DNA of 63,979 nucleotides, counting the filler, from Rhabdomonas costata (taxonomy: Eukaryota), in the NCBI GenBank assembly GCA_019059605.1. It is 53 parts of 53 records of this genome, joined end to end, with 100 filler letters (N's around TTAATTAATTAA, not from the genome) between each part and the next. Parts side by side here need not be neighbours in the genome. Positions count along the whole stretch, not along the records: positions 7,260 to 8,367 come from JAHMHO010028117.1; positions 8,468 to 9,576 come from JAHMHO010028118.1; 51 more parts are not named here. One strand, given 5' to 3'. Below the pieces are notes generated by a model. It ran no database searches and was not told where the DNA came from. It was given only the letters and a program-made list of their open reading frames with translations. Numbering within the stretch: the stretch's first letter is position 1; the number at the start of each line of letters is the position of its first letter. The translations under genes were made by a program, and so were the position numbers. Below are positions 3,900 to 45,852 of the stretch, in pieces.

Positions 3900-4535
3900 C
3901 TGCTCCCGCTGCTCGTTGGCAAAGATCTGCTCGTCGGTGCGGTAGAACGCCCTCACGGAACGGTCGTGCCCCGCCGTGACGATCAGGGAGGCATCGGAGT
4001 TAACGGAAAGGCAGAGAATGCCCTGAACCCAGTCATATCAGAAACGGTAAACGGAATATGAAGCAGTCGCTGCAAGTTGCGTTGTTCCGAGAAAACCGAC
4101 TCCAAAAAAATGGACCAAAGTCCCTAAGTCCCGGGGCAAGAGGGATTATCCTCAAGCACAACCCACTACCACAAGAGATAGCCGACCCCATAAAGGCAAC
4201 CCTACCAGAAAGCTTCCTTCACAACATCACCAGCATTCACCATTCATCATTCACTCATGCAATCACCAACCAGGATCCATTAGTGTTAGTCCTGCTGACC
4301 TCGGTATGGAAAACCCAGCACGAACCTGGATGTGGCTGCGGAGGATCTGGATGAGCTGGTACGTGTCCGCGTCCCAGTACTTCACCGTGCCGTCCATGGA
4401 AGTAGAGAAGAAGTAGTGCGTGCCGCGGCAGAACCGCACCGCCGTCACGGGCTGGTCGTGCGCAAACAAGGACCTCTTGCACTCCCCGAAGACCAGCCCC
4501 CAGATCTTCAGGTTCTTGTCCATCCCCGCACTCAC
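3900..4535 (-). CDS. UTP12: U3 snoRNP WD40 protein Utp12/Dip2/WDR3 (exons 4535-4326 and 4022-3900)
   Basis: MDKNLKIWGLVFGECKRSLFAHDQPVTAVRF...KYWDADTYQLIQILRSHIQ|GILCLSVNSDASLIVTAGHDRSVRAFYRTDEQIF matches the WDR3 signature KIWGLDFGDCHKSLFAH. Exons are 210 and 123 nt, phase 0, GT-AG. Confidence 0.9.
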
Positions 4536-4846
4536 CTGCGATGAAGGAGTACGCGGACGAGGAGTGCGAGGAGTTCTCCTGGACGTGTATGGAGACGGGC
4601 TGCTCTGCCTGTAGTAGTAAACTGGGTCTCCACTTGTTTTCGATGCGCTATCGTCGGAAGTTGTAGTTAACAACCACTTGCCGCGGACCCTCCATCAGAA
4701 ACGCTCACGTAACGGGATCCGTGCATTACCCCCCCCCCCCNNNNNNNNNNNNNNNNNNNNNNNNNNNNNNNNNNNNNNNNNNNNTTAATTAATTAANNNN
4801 NNNNNNNNNNNNNNNNNNNNNNNNNNNNNNNNNNNNNNNNTGTGGG

Positions 4847-5199: not shown

Positions 5200-5824
5200 A
5201 ATAGCTTCCATATTGATCCGCAAGATCTTCTGCTCATCGACAATTTCCGTCAGCTCCATAATCTGTGATCGAATCTGAAAAAAATACCCGCGAAAAGAAG
5301 ACCGTGATACCGCCAAACAGAAACACCGCAAAAAGGCAGTTACAATGTCTTAACACCATCGACCACCATCGCAGCAGTGGGCTGTCCTGCCAACCACTCT
5401 TAATCTTAAACGAAACAAATGTGTGCGCGTGCGGCGAAAACCACTCTTCACAAAAACCCGTGGAGCGATGGCGAATAGGAGGAAAACTTACGACTTACCT
5501 TATTTATGCTTCAGCAGTGCGGTCTGGGAAGAAGAAGCCACTGAAACTGAACGTCATGAATGACGCAGGATAAACTGCGCCAAAATGAAAAAAGCCAACA
5601 ACTCAAGAACCTTCATGATCATTTGCATGCCCAGGCCGAGGTTCTTGGTGACCTGGAACTTGGTGTTGGAGGGGAATACCATCTCCCTCTCGCGAGGAAA
5701 CCGGGAGTATTTCTCAATGGACTTGCAGGACATGGGATCAATGATGAACACAGTGCCATCCTTGAGCTCCCCGTTGGACTTCACTTTTATAAACTCCTCC
5801 GCGACGCTCTTCGAAAGCGATGAG
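5200..5824 (-). CDS. Mono-ADP-ribosyltransferase (ART, R-S-E clade) domain, C-terminal half (exons 5824-5611 and 5274-5200)
   Basis: xSSLSKSVAEEF...GTVFII...KSIEKYSRFPREREMVFPSNTKFQV...K|IRSQIMELTEI. It has an STS-like motif, an S.FP.ExE catalytic loop and a terminal IxLxEI strand. GT-AG intron. Confidence 0.8.
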
Positions 5825-6164
5825 CTAAGGCGCACAGAGATAGCAAGGGTACGGACAGAGGGATGCGCAGTACTAGTATCCGTATGCATGTTTGTAGTGA
5901 CACTGCTGATCCAAAAAGACTGCATGAACATCACATGTTCAGCAAAACCNNNNNNNNNNNNNNNNNNNNNNNNNNNNNNNNNNNNNNNNNNNNTTAATTA
6001 ATTAANNNNNNNNNNNNNNNNNNNNNNNNNNNNNNNNNNNNNNNNNNNNGGGGGTGGTGGGGCGAATGGAGGAGGTCAAAAACGCACAACCCTTCAACCC
6101 AAAGAAACTACTGACTACTACTACAAACTACTGCTACCATGGTTTGGAGAGAAACAGTGCACAC

Positions 6165-7868: not shown

Positions 7869-8521
7869 GACGGGTGCCATAACAGCAATTAATGACGTCA
7901 ATGGCAATGTCATCACGTCCAAATGTATGGAAAATCCCAACTAACATCAATTTGAGGGCTAAGGTTCTTTTGTACATACGTGGCCTCCTGAAACGCTGCG
8001 CCTTGGAGTCGAGTTTTCCTGACCTTTCACCCTCGGCCGGATGCCCGCTGGTGACAAAAAACACAAGGCCGGAAGGGAGTCCCAACCTCAATGATGCCCA
8101 ACAAAGCACATGCGCACCCGAAAACGAAGACCCCCATAAAACGCAAAAACAACCGCGTCGGTGTGAACGTCGCCCGAAAATGCATTCCAGGCCGCGCCCG
8201 ACGGTTCTCCCCTGGGGGAGAACGGCGCCCATTCAACAGGAGTCCGGCAAAGGGAGGTCGCCGCGCCAAGATCGCGCCCCCGAGCCGCTCAATTAAGCCG
8301 TCGCTGATGTAGAAGTGGGGGGTGCTGCCATCCCGAGGATGCCGCCCCTGAAGAAGGACACAACACANNNNNNNNNNNNNNNNNNNNNNNNNNNNNNNNN
8401 NNNNNNNNNNNTTAATTAATTAANNNNNNNNNNNNNNNNNNNNNNNNNNNNNNNNNNNNNNNNNNNNTGTTGGCTGTAAAACTTAAACTATTTAATTTTA
8501 CTATCAATATCAAATATGTAA

Positions 8522-8560
8522 TTTTTACTTTTTCTACATTGTATGTAGAAAAAGTAAAAA
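8522..8560. terminator. Perfect 18-bp AT-rich palindromic hairpin, resembling a Mimiviridae 3'-end/polyadenylation hairpin
   Basis: tttttactttttctacat-tgt-atgtagaaaaagtaaaaa lies ~60 nt downstream of the minus-strand stop at 8621. Confidence 0.7.
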
Positions 8561-8620
8561 CAAAGTCAAAGGCTACACTGAGCAATTACGCACACAAAGC
8601 ATGAACACAAAAAAGAATGT

Positions 8621-9195
8621 TCAGGGCAGACGACCAAAGGCCGGAACTGACCGTTTCCAATCTTCGTATGCCTTTGCGACGTCCGCAGCAATCTCTTGCT
8701 GGTACATCATAAGCATCCGCTCGACACTTCCTCGGAATTTTTTACTATATATATGCTGCCGCACCGGCGTCTTGCCTCGCTTAAAAACTTCAAGTTGGTG
8801 TCGGTATTCGTTTGTGATAAGGACCTTAAAAAAGTCGGTCATCATCTTTTTAACGTTGGTCTTGGTCAAAGACCAAGATTCCAATTCAAAAAACGTGTCG
8901 CGGATATTCTTCAAAAAAAGAACGAAGTCGTCGACTTCTTCGAGTCGGTAATGTTTAACGGTCTTTTTAGACCGTTCTTGCAAAAAAACTTCTCCCAATA
9001 AGAAAGATTACGATTCACAACGTTGATCATCGCGGTCTTAATGGGCTCGCGCATTGTCTTTTGTAGGCTCAGCCAGAGCATGAACTCCATGTGCATATCT
9101 GGCAGCTGGCGGCCCATTGTGAAGCTTGGGAAAGAGCTCGAAAAAGCTTTTGAAAAAGGCTGTGGAAGAAGTGCTTGATTATATTCTTCGCGCAT
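8621..9195 (-). CDS. Hypothetical protein, probably giant-virus; split into two overlapping frames (9195-8911 and 8998-8621)
   Basis: Intronless. ATG at 9195 lies 44 nt downstream of AAAATTGA, and the hairpin follows the stop. The two frames join at a T7 run (8982-8988). Confidence 0.55.
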
Positions 9196-9238
9196 GTAAT
9201 ACAGTATTAGTATATGGAATTTCAAATAAAATAAATTT

Positions 9239-9246
9239 TCAATTTT
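9239..9246 (-). promoter_or_regulatory. AAAATTGA Mimiviridae-type early promoter motif
   Basis: Exact octamer on the minus strand in an AT-rich intergenic region upstream of the ATG at 9195. Confidence 0.6.
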
Positions 9247-9323
9247 TTGTAATCCTACATAATATTTTTATTTTTACATGTATTTTCTGTCACTCTCTTT
9301 TTTTATTTCTTACTTATTTATAG

Positions 9324-9576
9324 ATGGAAATTTTACACAATAATTTATCAACTGATCTTAATACACAAATAAACAATGACATTCCACAATTAAATATTTC
9401 GTCTATACATAATAAATCATATTTTCGTTTTCCTACAATGTCAAAAAATTGTAATCATGTCTCACGTAAATTATCTTGTAATATTAACAATTTATTATTT
9501 CATACAGACAGTCTAAATATTATTCAACCATGTTCTTCTCGTATTCATGTTATTACAGATTCTTTAAATACACCTA
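9324..9576 (+). CDS. Asn-rich hypothetical protein (partial), probably giant-virus
   Basis: AT-rich ORF MEILHNNLSTDLNTQINND... is divergent from the previous gene and runs off the contig end. Confidence 0.55.
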
Positions 9577-17852: not shown

Positions 17853-20557
17853 TCTTCGGTCGACGCCCGCTTTTGGCGGAGCGCAACACAAAGGAGTAAA
17901 ACAGAGGTAATGGAGAAAAAAGGAGAGAAGAGAAGAGAACCCTGAAGGAACAGATACAAGCCTCCTTCCATAAACAAAAGGTAAACTATATTGCAGAAAA
18001 TTCAGTGGTTCTACCAATGTGTCGAGATCTTCTTCCAAACAACAANNNNNNNNNNNNNNNNNNNNNNNNNNNNNNNNNNNNNNNNNNNNTTAATTAATTA
18101 ANNNNNNNNNNNNNNNNNNNNNNNNNNNNNNNNNNNNNNNNNNNNTGTGGGGGTGTGCTTTCGACTGTATGATGTCTGCGGTGTGCTTTGGCTTCCCCAC
18201 TTCTAACAAACACGCGCACTTCATGGGGTGTGAGTGTGCCCTTTGGCCTTTCACAGCTTTCCCCTATTCCCGGCTTGTGCGTAGAAGCAAGGCGAGCACA
18301 GCAACAGCCAAACAGTACGAACAAGGCAAGCCAGCCAAACCTCCTTCCTGTCCTCCCGGGTCTGCTTTCCACGGCCTTTTGGCTCAACTTCTCCAAACTT
18401 GCGAGGCCAACTCGTCGTGTGCTCAGCTCTGCGGCCTTGTCCTCCTCAACGTCGTCCTCCGGAACGGCTATCCTCAGCACCGTCCTCCTGCGCCTTCTTC
18501 TTCTTGTTTTCCGCCGCCTTCGCTGCTAGCACTCTGCTCAAAGCTTCAGCTTGACAGCCTCTGCTCCTAAACTCTCTTTCTGAAACCTCTCCTTTGAGAA
18601 ACCTGCTTTCCACACTCTCTTCTCCACTGGCATTTGCTCTACACCACTGCCTTCTCCAAAAAGCTGTCCTTACGAACTGCCTGCTGCTGATTCGCTTTTC
18701 TACTGCTCTCGCACAGATTTACAATTTCTTGAACACCTTCAAAGCCTCCACTGATCTCTGATCTTTAAAAGGATCTCCTCCGAGCTCCCCACCAACTTCT
18801 GGGACTAACCAAGCTTCCAAGCTACTACGAAAATCTTGTCTGGCTCACCCAGCTGTTTCTTTTTTCTTCTACTACAAAACGTTCTTCCTACGTATGCTGA
18901 GCCGTTACATAGAAGGCAATGATCAGATCTAAGGGGTTTTCGCGTGGGCGGACGCCATTGCGATAGAAGGGTGCTGTCACGGCCCCGGTGTGACAAGATA
19001 GAGAGAGAAGTCATGTGGGTGTGGCTAGAGAAGGTGTGGAGCATTACAGAAGAGAAAAGAGAGGCAATGTCATGAGAGAGAATGGAAGTGAATGATGCAA
19101 GCAAGGAAGAGTGCAGTGAGGGAAGGCGTGGATTCCAGAGCGGATGAGACCAAGAGAAGACAGCGGATGAGATCAAGAGGTGAGGGTAGTACAGTGGATT
19201 TCATGGAACGATGTTGGAGAGGAGAGTTTTTTCTGAGTTTGTTTTCAGCAGGATTCNNNNNNNNNNNNNNNNNNNNNNNNNNNNNNNNNNNNNNNNNNNN
19301 TTAATTAATTAANNNNNNNNNNNNNNNNNNNNNNNNNNNNNNNNNNNNNNNNNNNNGCGGGAAGCTGGTGAGCGTTTTGTATGCCGAGAATGTTTGAGAG
19401 CAAGTCCGCTCTTGTGTTCCACGTTTTTGTATTTGTAGTGGTAATGACGCGCACCATTGTAAGCTTTGGTTTGCGTTACTTCCCATGTTGTGCAGCACTT
19501 CGACAACCTTTGCATGCTTTCTGCTACAGATTTTCTAGTTGAAGCCTGCACTTGGGGTGTGTTTTTTAGGCATTGGATTCGGTGGGGTGAGAGTTTGTTT
19601 TTCTTCTCGTTACTAGCGGAAGTTTTTTTATATGTATTTCGTCGAAAATGACGAACTAGAAAATTTTCTCTAACACCTGCTGGAACTCCTGGGAATCGAA
19701 GTAGGCAACGTAAAAGTGCTATTTGGCCCACTTGTGCCAGAATAAAGTAATCCTGGGTTCTACCCTTGGGTCAAGCAAAGGTCGAGTGAAGCCGGGTGTT
19801 CGGGCGGGGGTCCGCAGGGGTGAGATAACGTCCCTGAGCCCATGGATTTTTTCTAAATACCTTCGAGAGCATTTTCCATTCCAAATTGAACCTTGACTGG
19901 GTTATGTCTCAACGTATTCACGTTGAGACATAACGTTGAGAAATCCAACGCCAGCGAGTGACCAACCAATTAATAACTTGACACCGAAGATCACGTTCAT
20001 TTGGATAATTCTAAATCAACAATTAAAAAGCCGAAGTCACTTGTCATCCACTTTTACTAAAGTTCTCGTATATGGCATTTGTATTGTTCCTCATAATCGG
20101 TATTTTTTAATGAATTGGTCGCATACATAAACGTGACCCTTATTATTTTTGAAAGGAAGCAACAGTTTGCCAATATGAAGAACTAACCAAAAGGAAGTAT
20201 TATTTTCCGTGTAAAAAACACTTTTGCTCCTAAAAAAACTCACATTGAGGTTAAGAATTATTCCAGAGTTAGATTTCGCATTTTCCGCGTTATTCAAATA
20301 GACGCGTCACAGCGGTTGAGCCCCAAGTCCTGAGGATCACGGTAGGTCTCCGTGCGGTCTGGTCTCTGAGTGGCAGATTGACCATAGGGTTTGCCAAACA
20401 CCACGTAGGTAACTCAAATGAGCAGGCCCCCCCCACACACACACACTCACCACAACANNNNNNNNNNNNNNNNNNNNNNNNNNNNNNNNNNNNNNNNNNN
20501 NTTAATTAATTAANNNNNNNNNNNNNNNNNNNNNNNNNNNNNNNNNNNNNNNNNNNN

Positions 20558-20843
20558 GTATTTTTTATCATATAGTGCAAATAAAACTGTATTAATTAAT
20601 AATCCACAATTTTTAAATGATATGTACATCTATGAATCAAAAAAAACAGGATATAAATTACAAAATGAATTAAATTGGAGTTATAGACATGTTATTAATT
20701 ATTTATTTTCAAAGAAATTTGTTCATGATAATGATACAATGTTAATTAAAATTACACATTGGTGTAGAATACATATAACAGATGATCATTTTGCAAATTT
20801 TACAGAGCTACCATTATATGAATATTATTTTAAAATTTATTAA
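20558..20843 (+). CDS. Hypothetical protein, 3' part (probably giant-virus)
   Basis: AT-rich intronless ORF ending at TAA 20843, convergent with the next ORF. Confidence 0.55.
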
Positions 20844-20870
20844 TTAAAAATATATTTCTATATTTTTAAT
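20843..20870. terminator. 12-bp palindromic hairpin between convergent genes (Mimiviridae hairpin-rule-like)
   Basis: attaaaaatata-tttc-tatatttttaat fills almost the entire 30-nt intergenic gap. Confidence 0.6.
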
Positions 20871-20873
20871 AAT

Positions 20874-21667
20874 TCATTCTTTATAATCATTTTCAAAATG
20901 TACAATTCTTGTTTTAGGACGATTTAATAATCCAGAAGATGTTACAGGTCGTTCTTTTATTGTTTTCTCAATGATATCAATATCTGGAATACCTTCACCA
21001 CGATCATATTTCTTTTTAGTTATAACATCAGACATAGGAACACCATCACGTATATATGATTCTTTGTCAATTGTAATACCAGACGGGCTTCCATTGCCAC
21101 GATCATAAATTTGCTTATTAATAATTTCATTAAGAGGTTTAATAACGTCTCGTTCATAATTTTGTTTATATTGAACATCAACACTTGAAGAAATAGGAGA
21201 ACGTTCATAATGTTGTTTTATACAAGATGAACCTTCGTCTGTCATACCAGAAGGACAATCTGGTGAACAAGTACAACAACCGACAGAATGATATCCAGGT
21301 TTACATTTATTATAACAAAGACCATTAACTAATTCTTGATCATCATTACAGATATGTGTTGGTTTTTGTGTATCAATTACACTTGTATTTTTATTATAAC
21401 GTTCACAAGTCATTGTAATATCATTAGTAGTCCAACCTGCAGGACATACCAAATCAGGTTTACTACCAGTATCACGTTTATATGAATCTACTTTACGACA
21501 AGATACACCTTCATCAACAAAATTAGAAGGACATGTCTGCCAACAATTTGAATTTTTACCAATAAATCCTTCTTTACAATAATCATAACATTTATCATTG
21601 ACCATTTCTTTATCATCGGGACATTGATTTTGTTTTTTACAACTAATACCATCATCAATATAATCAT
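20874..21667 (-). CDS. Cys-rich repeat protein (GLCY..C..GY...GC..C...CP.G..D.G..C.K..Y.R) with C-terminal Y(D/E)RG repeats; 5'-partial, giant-virus-like
   Basis: The frame is open from the contig end to the stop at 20874. It is AT-rich and intronless, with repeated Cys modules and ~15-aa YxR repeats of a type I associate with Mimiviridae. Confidence 0.7.
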
Positions 21668-21767: not shown

Positions 21768-22495
21768 TTTTTGTGTTCAAGTAATAAAGGGAGCGATGCC
21801 TGATATCCCATAATCCCGAATTTTGCTTTTCTCTTTTTACCGTTACTTCCCGGTAAAGCTGTATTTGCAAGTTTTCCGTTTTGCCGTTCTGTAATCCCGG
21901 AATCCATAGAACCCCAGCAGAATAGTATTTCAGGGTTTAAGGAAAGATCAAACTCAGAATTGTGTGATGTTAACAAAAAAGAGCGCCCCAGGCTTAAGTA
22001 AAGAGTGGGGTCTGAAACACTGCCAAGATACATGTCATAACCGCCGCTTAATAAAAAACTTTCAACTTCATATGATCCTGATAATCCAAACGAGTTGTTA
22101 AAAAAAGTTTTTCTTTGCTGAGATTCAGAACTAAACCAAAATTGAGAATAACTGGCAGATAGAATTAGTTTTTGAGATAAAGAATAAGAGTAGCTTAAAT
22201 AAAGAGTTGTTCCATCCCACTTTTTGGGGGCTTTTGAATAGTATCCAATTGAAGTTCCTGCTGAAAAACCATATGGCAGGTTTACTGTAATCCATGGTTC
22301 GGCTGCAAATTGATTTACTCCGTAATCGCGCATGCTGACATTATAATGTGAGTAACCTGAAACTCCAAATAAAACTACATAGTTGTTTTCAGTTTTATTT
22401 CCCGAATTTAGAGTATCACTGCCCGCAGAAGATCTTGCCGATAAAATAAATGTAAACCCTAATGCAAATAAAAATGACAGTATAATATTTTTCAT
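21768..22495 (-). CDS. Bacterial secreted/outer-membrane beta-barrel-like protein (3'-partial)
   Basis: Sec signal peptide MKNIILSFLFALGFTFILSA is followed by alternating aromatic beta-strands (YLSYSYSL, LSGSY, LSGGYDMY). Confidence 0.7.
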
Positions 22496-22528
22496 AAATA
22501 ATAGAGATAATTTTTATATGCAAATATA

Positions 22529-22876
22529 CTATTTAACAAATGACATTTTCTTAATAAAATTTCCTCCCATGGTTAGAGAGAATAAATATATGTTCCGCTT
22601 GAAAGATTACGTGCATTAAATGTAAGTGTATAATTACCGGCTCCCTGATACTCATCTACAAGGAGAGCTACCTTTTTTCCTAACACATCATATACCGTTA
22701 ATTTTACATATTGCGGGGTTGGAATTGAGTATTCAATTCTGGTAACGGGATTAAAAGGATCGGGATAGTTTTGCTTAAGCTGGTATCCGTCCGGCAGTCC
22801 GGATTCATATTTTACATTAGTTGAAGAACTTTTAATAACAGGCAATTTCTGAAAATCTTTGCCGAGTATTTCTTTT
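22529..22876 (-). CDS. T9SS/Por secretion type A C-terminal sorting domain protein (5'-partial; apparent frameshift near 22575)
   Basis: LKQNYPDPFNPVTRIEYSIP...VKLTVYDVLGKKV..LV...Q.AG.Y...FNA.NLSSG.Y.Y.L is typical of Ignavibacteria/FCB CTDs. The expected tail (..NFIKKMSFVK*) lies in another frame. Confidence 0.85.
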
Positions 22877-31330: not shown

Positions 31331-32110
31331 GCCCAAAAAANNNNNNNNNNNNNNNNNNNNNNNNNNNNNNNNNNNNNNNNNNNNTTAATTAATTAANNNN
31401 NNNNNNNNNNNNNNNNNNNNNNNNNNNNNNNNNNNNNNNNCTGTGGTTCTGCTGCACCTCCTCTGTAAAAACAATGAAATGCAAAACTCAAAACAAATTC
31501 AAACAAAAAGTGACCTTTTAGGTTTTTGTGTTCGGCGTGTGACTTTTCTCCTCTGTCTTTGGATGTGCAACACCTTGGTGATCTGTACCGTTACACTCTC
31601 CACTGCTACGACGGAGGACGTCTGCAGCAGATGGACGACGGCCGATAACCCGAAATGTCCACCTGTAAGACTGTAAGAGCACCGTTTCCCCTGTAGATGT
31701 TGATTCCTCTATACACCCGTGTATATGGTATGTGTATGTACAACTCTTGTCTTCGTGAAACATGACATGAATCTGCACCAACTGTGGATGAGAATGACAC
31801 ACCAGCTGGAGCATCAGCACAACAGTCTGTGAAAAGGCTCCCAACACACCACAAACTTGATTGAACGCAACGCTATGAAAACAAAACATACACTCACACA
31901 CACACACAATCATGGCTCTGATCAGGGATTAAAACGACGAAAGTCATTTTGGTCCGGAGACTTCCAGATCATGTGGCAATCATCTACGCCACAGGAGCTT
32001 TGTGATCATACGCCAGAGGGATCGTAGCGCCAGGCCAGACGTTTGCCGACTGGAAAGATTGTTTTGAAACGCTCAAGAGGCGGCTGTGCGCTCAGACTTG
32101 GGACTATAAT

Positions 32111-32430
32111 GTGGTTTGGATGTTGGGGCAGCTGAAAATGTCAGAAGGAAACTTTCAGTTTTACCATCAGCAGTTTGCGACTGGGATGAATTTGCTGAAG
32201 GGAACGATGTTTGAGAGCGAGACCTTATTGCAGTACGTAAGAGGCTTGGAATGGGACATCCAGGCAAAGGTAACGGCGAAGAATCCTAGTAGCCTTAACG
32301 AGGCCATGGAAAAGGCCTGGGAGTATTTCCGCAAGCCGAGACCCCATCCGCAGGTAATCGTTGCTGTACCAGAGGGTGCAGTTCAAAGAAGCATAGCGAC
32401 TGTGACACGGCAATGGATTTAGACGCCATA
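32111..32430 (+). mobile_element. Degenerate Ty3/gypsy-type LTR-retrotransposon gag fragment
   Basis: L.QLKM..G.F..Y...F......LL...YVRGL...IQ..V....PSSLNEAM..A is followed by the gag-terminal MDLDAI motif in another frame. Upstream frames are broken. Confidence 0.65.
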
Positions 32431-35067: not shown

Positions 35068-35192
35068 TTCGCGTAGTCGAGGAGGATGCCCGCCAGCTCA
35101 GTGTTGGAGAGCAACGCGTCCTCGATCCTCAAGGCCAGCGCCCAGTAGATGTCCAGCGTGCCGTGCTTGGCGCGGAAGCCATGTTGTCCTGG
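35068..35192 (-). mobile_element. Non-LTR (LINE) reverse transcriptase fragment, subdomain 2a-3 region
   Basis: QHGFRAKHGTLDIYWALALRIEDALLSNTELAGILLDYA(K) matches the RT motif QxGFR...T.D....L...IE.A......L....LD..KAFD. Abrupt shift to GC-rich codons. Confidence 0.8.
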
Positions 35193-35834
35193 ATTGGGAA
35201 AGAAAGAGGAGGATGCAAGTGCTTCCATTCCCGCAGTCCCAATCTGATTAAAGGTCACATCCAAGGAAGCAAGGTTGGGGAAGAAAGCCGAGGATACTAG
35301 CGCTTGCATTCCCGTGGCCCCGATCTGATTGCTGCTGACATCCAACAAGGAAAGGTTGGGGAAAAAAGGGGAAGCGGCAAGTGCCTGCATTCCATCATCC
35401 CCTGTCTGACTGCTGCACAAATTCAACGAGGAAAGTTTCGGGAAGAAAGAGGAGGCTGCAAGTGCCTGCATTCCCGCGAACCCGATGTTAACGCTTCGTA
35501 TATCCAGAGATCTGAGGTTGGGAAACATGCAGGAAGCGGAGCGCGCAGCCATTTCCGCACCAACTCCAAGCATGTGTTCCAAGACCACCTTACAGCGCAC
35601 CAAAATCATCGCCGCGGAGCAAGCCAGACGCATACCCGGAGCCGCACTTTGACCATCCTTGAGATCTTTGGGGGTTTTTGTGAGGCGGAGTACAACCTTC
35701 CAATGCGGGGCAAGATTCTCATCAACCAAATCTTGAAAGTGCTTGCAAACCAGCCGCAGGCTAAGATGCGAGCTTTGCTCCAGAAACCAAAAGCTTGAAA
35801 TCCAGGAGTCCTCGGATAGGGGGAGGCACGACAT
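35193..35834 (-). CDS. F-box + RNI-like 28-aa leucine-rich repeat protein (intronless; 3' end replaced by RT sequence)
   Basis: N-terminal F-box (LSEDSWISSFWFL...LSLRLVCKHFQDLV) followed by four ~28-aa repeats FFPNLxxLDVxxNQIGxxGMQALAxS. Confidence 0.85.
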
Positions 35835-36282
35835 CTCTCTTTCGTCAGCAAGGTTAAGAAGGCTATGAAGGGAGAAAGTAGAGAAGGAAATTCGCCTGAG
35901 ATCTCCAAGGCCCTTCACAAACTGATGAGCCCTGGGTTCCGCGAATTTCTGGCTCCCTATGTCTTGGCCACATATTGGTTCCATTTCGACAATTCAGACT
36001 CCAGGGCCCTAAAGGGGGCACCTCCCAACCCTTCACCCACGCTCCAACTAACCCAAAATACAACAAACGCATACACTCTCACCGCCTGAAAGTGGAATGA
36101 GATTCCTCCCATTGAGTCCTTCCATGTAAATGCTGTGTCTGACGTACTTGCTTGAAATATTTCCCCACAAAAAACCNNNNNNNNNNNNNNNNNNNNNNNN
36201 NNNNNNNNNNNNNNNNNNNNTTAATTAATTAANNNNNNNNNNNNNNNNNNNNNNNNNNNNNNNNNNNNNNNNNNNNGGTTGG

Positions 36283-44743: not shown

Positions 44744-45852
44744 AAACTCAGGGCGCGGACCGCGCGCTCAGCGATCAGGAACAGCGGGTTTTAGCGTCGA
44801 GTGACTTTGTCTGTGACATGTTACTCCATCAACCTGAATGGCTGGAGACACTGCGCAAGCAACCGCCGGTGGCGGACGAGTGGCTGCATTACGCCGCCTG
44901 GCTGCAGGATGATTTGGAAGAGGTGCGCGACGAAGCGCAACTGATGCGCGTACTGCGCCTGTTCCGCCGCGAGACATTGGTGAGGATCGCCTGGGCGCAG
45001 GCGTTGGGCCAATGCAGCACGCAAGAAACGCTGCTGCAACTGAGTGGGTTGGCAGAAACGCTGATCGTCAGCGCTCGCGACTGGCTATACCAAACCTGCT
45101 GCCGTGAGTGGGGCACTCCCTGTAATGCGCAGGGCGTACCGCAACCGTTGCTGATCCTCGGGATGGGCAAATTGGGCGGCGGTGAGCTGAATTTCTCATC
45201 CGATATCGATCTGATCTTTGCCTACCCGGAAAATGGCCAGACCCAGGGCGGGCGGCGTGAGCTGGATAACGCCCAGTTCTTCACCCGTCTGGGGCAGCGG
45301 TTGATCAAAGCGCTGGATCAGCAAACCATCGACGGCTTCGTCTATCGCGTGGATATGCGCCTGCGTCCGTTTGGCGAAAGTGGCCCGCTGGTGCTGAGCT
45401 TTGCGGCGCTGGAAGATTATTACCAGGAGCAGGGGCGCGACTGGGAGCGTTACGCGATGGTCAAGGCGCGGATTATGGGCGATAGCGAAGGCGTCTATGC
45501 TAACGAGTTGCGTGCGATGCTGCGCCCGTTTGTTTTCCGTCGTTACATCGATTTCAGCGTGATTCAGTCGCTGCGCAACATGAAAGGGATGATTGCCCGT
45601 GAAGTGCGTCGACGTGGTTTGACCAACAATATCAAACTCGGCGCAGGCGGCATTCGCGAAATTGAATTTATCGTTCAGGTGTTCCAGCTCATTCGCGGTG
45701 GGCGCGAACCGTCGCTGCAATCGCGCTCTTTACTGCCAACGCTCAGCGTCATTGCCGCGCTGCATCTGCTTTCTGAAAACGATGCTGAACAATTGCGAGT
45801 GGCGTATCTGTTCCTGCGGCGTCTGGAAAACCTGCTGCAAAGCATTAACGAC
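44744..45852 (+). CDS. glnE: Glutamine synthetase adenylyltransferase/adenylyl-removase (partial), Enterobacterales
   Basis: Intronless and open across the whole contig. Contains [32 protein letters not shown] and [17 protein letters not shown]. Confidence 0.98.

Follow-up and report, generated by a model that had tools for sequence, protein, structure and literature searches.

We analysed a 63,979-base stretch of the Rhabdomonas costata assembly GCA_019059605.1 (the window), which consists of 53 separate contigs, each of 1101-1111 bp, spaced by N runs with a TTAATTAATTAA linker. One of these contigs (the target contig; positions 8468-9576, 1109 bp, 34.4% GC, bounded by N/TTAATTAATTAA spacers) carries a minus-strand gene that is followed by a perfect AT-rich hairpin, and we put at about even the chance that this contig is a fragment of an Imitervirales-like giant virus carrying a compositionally foreign, frame-broken orphan gene. 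A giant-virus origin had already been suggested in a preliminary description of the same DNA. The hairpin, the spacing of a promoter-like motif and an AT bias shared with a second contig (20558-21667) speak for this origin, whereas the lack of relatives in the databases searched, the lack of hallmark genes among the longest open reading frames (ORFs) of the window and an octamer that is near chance speak against it.

A perfect hairpin at the 3' end of the minus-strand gene

The preliminary description reported a perfect 18-bp hairpin 60 nt after a stop codon, and the inverted repeat is indeed present as described, its end being separated by 60 nt from the stop codon of the minus-strand gene (8623-8621; hereafter the minus gene). 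The hairpin is far beyond chance. A perfect stem of 18 bp was reached in none of 5000 first-order Markov simulations of the 153-nt 3' flank, in which the longest stem was 14 bp, and it is the longest of just five perfect hairpins of at least 10 bp across all 53 contigs. RNA folding placed a 19-pair stem in the minimum free energy structure and gave the 146-nt 3' region a z-score of -4.5, with none of 200 shuffles as stable. When used as a pattern against IMG/VR, the hairpin gave no matches.

Like a bacterial rho-independent terminator, this stem-loop lies soon after a stop codon. However, it is not a bacterial-type intrinsic terminator: whereas such terminators have a G+C-rich stem and then a T run, only 3 of the 18 pairs of this stem are G-C, and the following 8 bases contain 4 T and no T run. 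A consensus scan for intrinsic terminators did not list the hairpin, the sole site listed being unrelated and within the gene. We propose that it may serve as a signal for 3'-end processing or polyadenylation. In the excerpted text of PMC4402537, hairpin-forming palindromes whose sequence is not conserved are given as the polyadenylation signal, Pithovirus included, and the feature on which this 'hairpin rule' depends, an AT-rich palindrome, stands at the only complete 3' end on the target contig. Pithovirus is an AT-rich giant virus outside the Mimiviridae and, as far as that excerpt goes, it resembles the target in both its AT-rich genome and its hairpins at transcript ends (PMC4402537). Since it also obeys the hairpin rule, the hairpin alone does not place the fragment in the Imitervirales. 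Elsewhere in the window, at 19901-19934, another perfect hairpin (15 bp, 4-nt loop, mixed composition) is found; its contig has 43% GC and no convincing ORFs.

A compositionally foreign gene in an AT-rich backbone

The target contig had been described as AT-rich. This is true of its flanks, its spacer and its plus-strand ORF (the plus ORF), which have 18-27% GC, but not of the minus gene (43-46% GC), so that the contig is a mosaic. From the 3' flank (GC 0.268) the composition rises to 0.435-0.462 over the minus gene, drops to 0.18 in the spacer between the two divergent ORFs and is 0.237 in the plus ORF; the profile climbs from 0.21 to 0.46 over 8468-8667. The two steps in composition are closely related to the anatomy of the gene: the 5' step (near 9196) coincides with its ATG, and the 3' step (~8565) lies ~55 nt past its stop codon, where it adjoins the hairpin. 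Because the 60-nt trailer between stop codon and hairpin is still of middling GC, the compositionally foreign segment extends as far as the hairpin. The contig is AT-rich at both ends and consequently no junction with host DNA is visible on it.

The plus ORF is open for 84 codons before it runs off the contig. An open stretch of this length arose in 236 of 5000 simulations, and the deficit of GC at its third codon positions gives a permutation p of 0.00055 for periodicity. It is rich in Asn, Ile and Leu. The plus ORF is probably real, and it marks the backbone as a genome with a strong AT mutational bias. Its GC content at third codon positions (GC3) is 0.11, as against 0.51-0.55 in the minus gene, such that strongly AT-biased coding is seen in the plus ORF but not in the gene that bears the signals. 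Over the three codon positions, GC in the minus gene is 0.47-0.50, 0.30-0.36 and 0.51-0.55 (GC3 ~0.53).

The two ORFs form a compact divergent pair, with no introns seen on the contig. No Shine-Dalgarno-like purine run could be read in the sequence upstream of either ATG. The short divergent spacer (128 nt), the lack of introns and the lack of Shine-Dalgarno sequences fit with a virus. On the 1.1-kb contig there was no hallmark gene (MCP, PolB, A32, VLTF3 or D5) and no terminal repeat, and neither blastn nor tblastx matched it to any of the 52 remaining contigs. We also considered a kinetoplast minicircle, a reading that we rejected: the start of the contig is only loosely like the universal minicircle sequence, and a gene of 190 codons that shows codon periodicity is out of keeping with such a molecule. 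The coordinates of these and other features are collected in Table 1.

Table 1. Position and basis of the features of the target contig, the second AT-rich contig and the remaining contigs of the window
Feature	Position	Strand	Basis or remarks
AT-rich hairpin, perfect 18 bp, 3-nt loop	8522..8560	-	arms 8522-8539/8543-8560, 100% complementary
3' untranslated stretch, 60 nt	8561..8620	-	middling GC
Downstream part of minus gene, frame B	8621..8981	-	GC by codon position 0.51/0.30/0.52
A7 run (T7 on coding strand), likeliest 1-nt frame-break site	8982..8988	-	frames and codon-position GC phase
Upstream part of minus gene, frame A	8989..9195	-	GC by codon position 0.48/0.36/0.55
Divergent spacer, 128 nt, 18% GC	9196..9323	.	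sequence and GC profile
AAAAAATTGA (includes AAAATTGA and AAAAATTGA), proposed early-type promoter core	9239..9248	-	sequence read and motif search
Divergent AT-biased ORF, 5' part, 84 codons, runs off contig	9324..9576	+	GC by codon position 0.29/0.32/0.11
Perfect 12-bp palindrome between the convergent ORFs	20843-20870		hairpin search
P0005, 263-residue Cys-rich ORF, repeat protein	20877-21665	-	ORF call
WD40/WDR3	4266-4694		eukaryotic domain; Pfam
NAD:arginine ADP-ribosyltransferase (ART) domain	5557-5949		separate mid-GC contig, eukaryotic fraction; Pfam
Por_Secre_tail (type IX secretion system (T9SS) sorting) domain	22576-22875		bacterial; Pfam
Ty3 retrotransposon capsid fragment	32006-32419		mid-GC contig, eukaryotic fraction; Pfam
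LRR	35070-35993		eukaryotic domain; Pfam
GlnE adenylyltransferase	44746-45852		bacterial; Pfam

The minus gene is split between two frames

The minus gene was previously taken as one ORF from the ATG at 9195 to the stop codon at 8621. This does not hold, as the two lie in different frames with a 1-nt shift between them. Frame A runs from the ATG to a TGA at 8913-8911 (94 codons), whereas the open stretch of frame B covers 9007-8624 (128 codons) and ends at the TGA at 8623-8621. With one added T in the T7 run on the coding strand, the two frames would become a single ORF of 191 codons; alternatively, the shift could lie in a second A7 run, at 8913-8919. GC is lowest at the second codon position of frame A ahead of the first run, and at the second codon position of frame B beyond it; since this minimum moves from one frame to the other, the assembled DNA does contain the frame break. 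The missing base is most simply explained by a homopolymer error, arising in sequencing or assembly, or else by a fresh inactivating mutation that has left a pseudogene. A -1 slip on UUU UUU U would yield an identical 191-residue product, a form of recoding for which we found no support.

Beyond its first stop codon, frame A continues for 140 codons, to 8490, with six in-frame TGA codons but neither TAA nor TAG. This pattern, which at first sight resembles the TGA=Trp code of organelles and mollicutes, arises because NTA codons are nearly absent from frame B (TTA 0, CTA 1, ATA 1). Reassignment of TGA was rejected, given that the codon-position GC pattern follows frame B once the T7 run is passed and that all Trp codons of the true frames are TGG. 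An intron in place of the frameshift was likewise rejected: the only GT..AG candidates of fitting length, 35 and 38 nt, are not rich in AT, and their removal would take out helical coding sequence.

All 14 Arg codons of the minus gene are CGN, as compared with 24 of 41 in the eukaryotic ORFs of the window, a difference that argues against a simple capture of the gene from the main eukaryote. Frame B had a language-model recognition of 2829, above the 2300 mark, and by this measure it does look like a natural protein. A single-sequence AlphaFold model of frame B consisted entirely of helices, with a pLDDT (the model's own confidence score) of 50, too poor for a fold search. The product of frame B is predicted to be part of an all-helical, charged protein.

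A promoter-like octamer lies upstream of the minus gene

Within the spacer, TCAATTTT at 9239-9246 reads as AAAATTGA on the minus strand, and 43 nt separate this octamer from the ATG of the minus gene (first base 9195). The excerpted text of PMC5294985 reports that AAAATTGA precedes 45% of mimivirus genes within 150 nt. Similarly, the parts of PMC5871332 available describe AAAAATTGA together with 3' palindromes in Bodo saltans virus (BsV), which infects a kinetoplastid, as well as in CroV and the mimiviruses. An exact AAAATTGA/AAAAATTGA site precedes one of the two ATGs on the target contig.

A second AT-rich contig and giant-virus control loci

The only other very AT-rich contig in the window, at 20558-21667 (26.8% GC, GC3 0.08-0.09), contains two convergent, 5'-truncated ORFs. 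One of them, P0005, has five unnamed relatives in metagenomes. An alignment-based search that started from these relatives led to five IMG/VR contigs, three of which are named GVMAG, and the best tblastn value for P0005 was 4.7e-24 in a small database. Two of the loci (L003 and L004, both GVMAG; 27-28% GC) encode D5-type primase-helicase domains (D5_N/PriCT_2), while the other three carry DUF5899 (minor capsid P2), DUF5767, ThyX, collagen and UCH, genes that are common in giant viruses. Contig 20558-21667 is probably giant-virus DNA.

L003 and L004 were used as positive controls for the layout of motif and hairpin. Together they contain six AAAATTGA sites, three of which precede an ATG on the correct strand by 33, 37 and 54 nt, and five perfect hairpins of 11-14 bp, three of which lie 12-29 nt after a stop codon. 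The spacing of the target octamer (43 nt) is inside the control range of 33-54 nt; the target hairpin is longer than those of the controls and, at 60 nt, farther from its stop codon.

The two AT-rich contigs of the window have several coding habits in common. Arg is encoded as CGT in 3 of 3 cases in the plus ORF and in 8 of 11 in P0005; L003 and L004, by comparison, have CGT in 32 of their combined 192 Arg codons and mostly AGA otherwise. ATT is preferred over ATA by ~4:1 in both the plus ORF and P0005, a habit that L003 and L004 do not share. Small as the counts are, they hint that the target contig and 20558-21667 might come from one genome. The latter, with its Cys-rich protein of the kind found in giant-virus metagenome-assembled genomes (MAGs), is like the backbone of the target in its GC3 of ~0.1 and its use of CGT for Arg and ATT for Ile, but it is a separate contig without a known physical link.

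As a further observation on the control loci, a large Cys-rich ORF related to P0005 (8520-10196 in L003, 9239-11392 in L004) lies within ~4-5 kb of a D5-type primase-helicase gene in both. This proximity may represent a conserved neighbourhood.

Homology searches

The preliminary description had stated that both ORFs were of unrecognised family, and this was borne out: searches of Pfam, PHROGs and NCBIfam with frame A, frame B and the plus ORF returned only sub-threshold matches (DUF4269, E 0.035; SigI, E 0.012). It had also proposed a search for relatives among the nucleocytoplasmic large DNA viruses (NCLDV). Scans of IMG/VR gave no genuine relative with any of the three queries, the two frames of the minus gene and the plus ORF. 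Scans of JGI metagenomes with frame B and the plus ORF revealed no relatives, nor did tblastn and blastn against 50,697 phage records and 72,556 plasmids, and a scan of the GTDB species genomes gave no genuine relative. A search of the PDB by sequence gave nothing (best E 0.51). A word-indexed search of 5.8 billion proteins found none for frame B, and none for the plus ORF among the longer proteins. In the ESM Atlas, frame B was matched only by unnamed eukaryotic clusters (score 0.95, no family), and the plus ORF had no usable match. Frame B had no match in the record behind locus L005.

Several apparent matches were examined and rejected. Three HMMER matches of frame B among 1.84 billion representative proteins (E up to 0.001) were spurious, involving repetitive proteins and 5-6 short stretches. 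A phage contig from IMG/VR (L001) and a Eubacteriales MAG from GTDB (L007) matched just around the 8-residue search word AKAYEDWK, which in each case occurs in an unrelated protein (542 aa and 415 aa, respectively). Since no relatives were found, the origin of the contig is not decidable by homology.

Origin of the contig

The arrangement described above suggests a model in which the backbone of the contig belongs to an AT-rich, gene-dense, intron-free genome, most likely that of a giant virus of the Imitervirales/Mimiviridae kind or that of a small element replicating with one, which was co-assembled with the protist and bacteria. The minus strand would then represent one complete unit, composed of the AAAAAATTGA core, 43 nt, a 191-codon gene, a 60-nt trailer and the 18-bp hairpin. 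By analogy with mimivirus-like viruses, transcription would start at the AAAAAATTGA core, through an early transcription factor and an RNA polymerase that the virus itself encodes, and the transcript would traverse the gene, be cut at the hairpin by a viral RNase III-type enzyme and then be polyadenylated at its end. The roles of promoter and terminator, like the viral origin itself, are what we infer from this layout. Because its GC3 of 0.51-0.55 has not drifted towards the 0.11 of the backbone, the gene looks recently acquired.

Several features liken the target to the early units of Mimiviridae and Imitervirales, in so far as these are set out in the excerpted texts of PMC5294985, PMC4402537 and PMC5871332. 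There is an AAAA(A)TTGA core less than 150 nt before the ATG, and there is an AT-rich palindrome after the stop codon, together with short spacers, no introns and orphan genes, a layout that is also seen in L003 and L004. Orphan genes are frequent in such viruses; in BsV, 40% of the ORFs are ORFans according to the same partial account (PMC5871332).

A number of points weigh against this origin. In the databases searched, no homology ties the contig to any virus, and, of the 84 longest ORFs in the window, none matched an NCLDV hallmark family in Pfam. With its 43-46% GC, the gene between the signals is unlike mimivirus-type coding sequence; it is also frame-broken, none of the proteins on the contig is like a giant-virus protein, and there is just one motif and one hairpin to examine. 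The octamer had been reported as an exact match 44 nt upstream of the ATG at 9195, and although the match is exact, with 43 nt between, it does not rise above chance: under a Markov model that allows either strand, at least one AAAATTGA is expected with a probability of 0.066 in the 128-nt spacer and of 0.21 in the 534 AT-rich bases of the contig taken together. Nor is the motif enriched in the window, where 4 were observed versus 4.66 expected. The lone octamer is therefore near chance. The plus ORF had a low language-model recognition (1068). Finally, the link between the two AT-rich contigs consists of composition and a handful of codons, and the P0005 family is maybe not specific to viruses, since the viral contigs of its relatives span 27-60% GC and its relatives include unnamed metagenome proteins.

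What other source might produce such a contig? A fragment of an AT-rich bacterium or phage, associated with the protist or eaten by it, is unlikely, even though bacterial contigs occur in the same window (GlnE at 44746-45852; Por_Secre_tail on the 35%-GC contig 21768-22876) and the target contig is compact, without introns and with orphan genes. The hairpin would in that case be a terminator or a repeat, and the mid-GC gene an acquired island. The minus gene uses solely CGN for Arg and avoids AGR, a habit typical of many mid-GC bacteria, and a sigma-70-like scan gave 7 sites versus 4.2 expected. On the other hand, the stem of the hairpin is weak and AT-rich, has no T run and was absent from the terminator-like sites of the scan; neither ATG is preceded by a Shine-Dalgarno sequence; there is no true match in PHROGs, NCBIfam, the phage and plasmid collections or GTDB; and the GC3 of the plus ORF (0.11) is far below that of the AT-rich bacterial contig of the window (0.27). 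We assign a low probability to an origin from the nucleus or an organelle of a second, AT-rich eukaryote, or from an organelle of the host, with the hairpin as an intergenic repeat. The divergent spacer of 128 nt is very short for nuclear DNA, the minus-gene protein is hydrophilic, orphan and unlike proteins encoded by organelles, the window is without tRNA, rRNA or other Rfam families and shows no sign of TGA=Trp, and no relatives were found among the 1.84 billion representative proteins; these points outweigh the resemblance of the Asn/Ile/Leu-rich plus ORF and the 18%-GC spacer to such genomes, and the fact that the assembly is clearly mixed.

An artefact of assembly or amplification, in which a mid-GC fragment from the host or a bacterium became flanked by AT-rich DNA and the apparent unit is accidental, seems similarly improbable. 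It would account for the sharp steps in composition at ~8565 and 9196; in addition, the frame break points to flaws in the sequence, all contigs are short and the preliminary description supposed an amplified sample. However, a chimera needs two independent joins inside 1.1 kb, with the 5' step falling exactly at the ATG and with motif and hairpin both rightly oriented and spaced for the minus gene. Moreover, the middle part has no match in the other 52 contigs (blastn, tblastx) and its Arg codon usage is unlike that of the window's eukaryotic ORFs. The same features that favour a giant virus would also be expected of a small companion of one (a virophage, polinton-like virus or transpoviron) that borrows its promoter and hairpin signals, and such elements are AT-rich and have many orphan genes. 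We consider this very unlikely, there being no homology in IMG/VR and no hallmark gene or terminal repeat on the contig, although on 1.1 kb a companion is indistinguishable from the virus itself. The most doubtful of the readings that we weighed is a more elaborate form of the viral one, whereby an unsampled Imitervirales-like virus associated with the protist has just captured a mid-GC cellular gene and placed it exactly between an early promoter and a hairpin, with the break being no error but bridged by polymerase stuttering or a -1 slip. If true, it would offer a rare snapshot of gene capture before amelioration, combined with recoding.

If the contig does derive from a giant virus, the assembly holds traces of an unsampled virus of this kind beside the protist, 2 of the 53 contigs would come from such a virus, and the foreign gene would illustrate a gene capture of the very recent past. 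Searching the whole assembly could then bring up further parts of the virus and possibly a virus-host pair. What there is at present, namely orphan genes on 1.1 kb of DNA, a single hairpin and a near-chance octamer, is a pointer for binning and no discovery by itself.

Make-up of the window

The majority of the 53 contigs have a GC content of 48-59%. Pfam was run on 84 ORFs, comprising the longest one or two per contig and the second ORF of each of the two AT-rich contigs. No tRNA and no Rfam family, rRNA included, was found anywhere in the window. The target had been described as lying among protist contigs, and eukaryotic domains (WD40/WDR3, LRR, Ty3 capsid and ART) are indeed present, but so are bacterial contigs (GlnE and Por_Secre_tail). 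Since eukaryotic and bacterial Pfam domains are both represented, the assembly is mixed rather than that of a clean protist.

Two such bacterial contigs were noted. Contig 44744-45852 (58% GC) is a single open frame throughout, with GlnE and a GlnD_UR_UTase domain (E 3e-96), and it is a bacterial contaminant or associate. Contig 21768-22876 (35% GC, GC3 0.27), which has a Por_Secre_tail domain and, upstream of it, a 248-residue ORF, looks bacterial in appearance.

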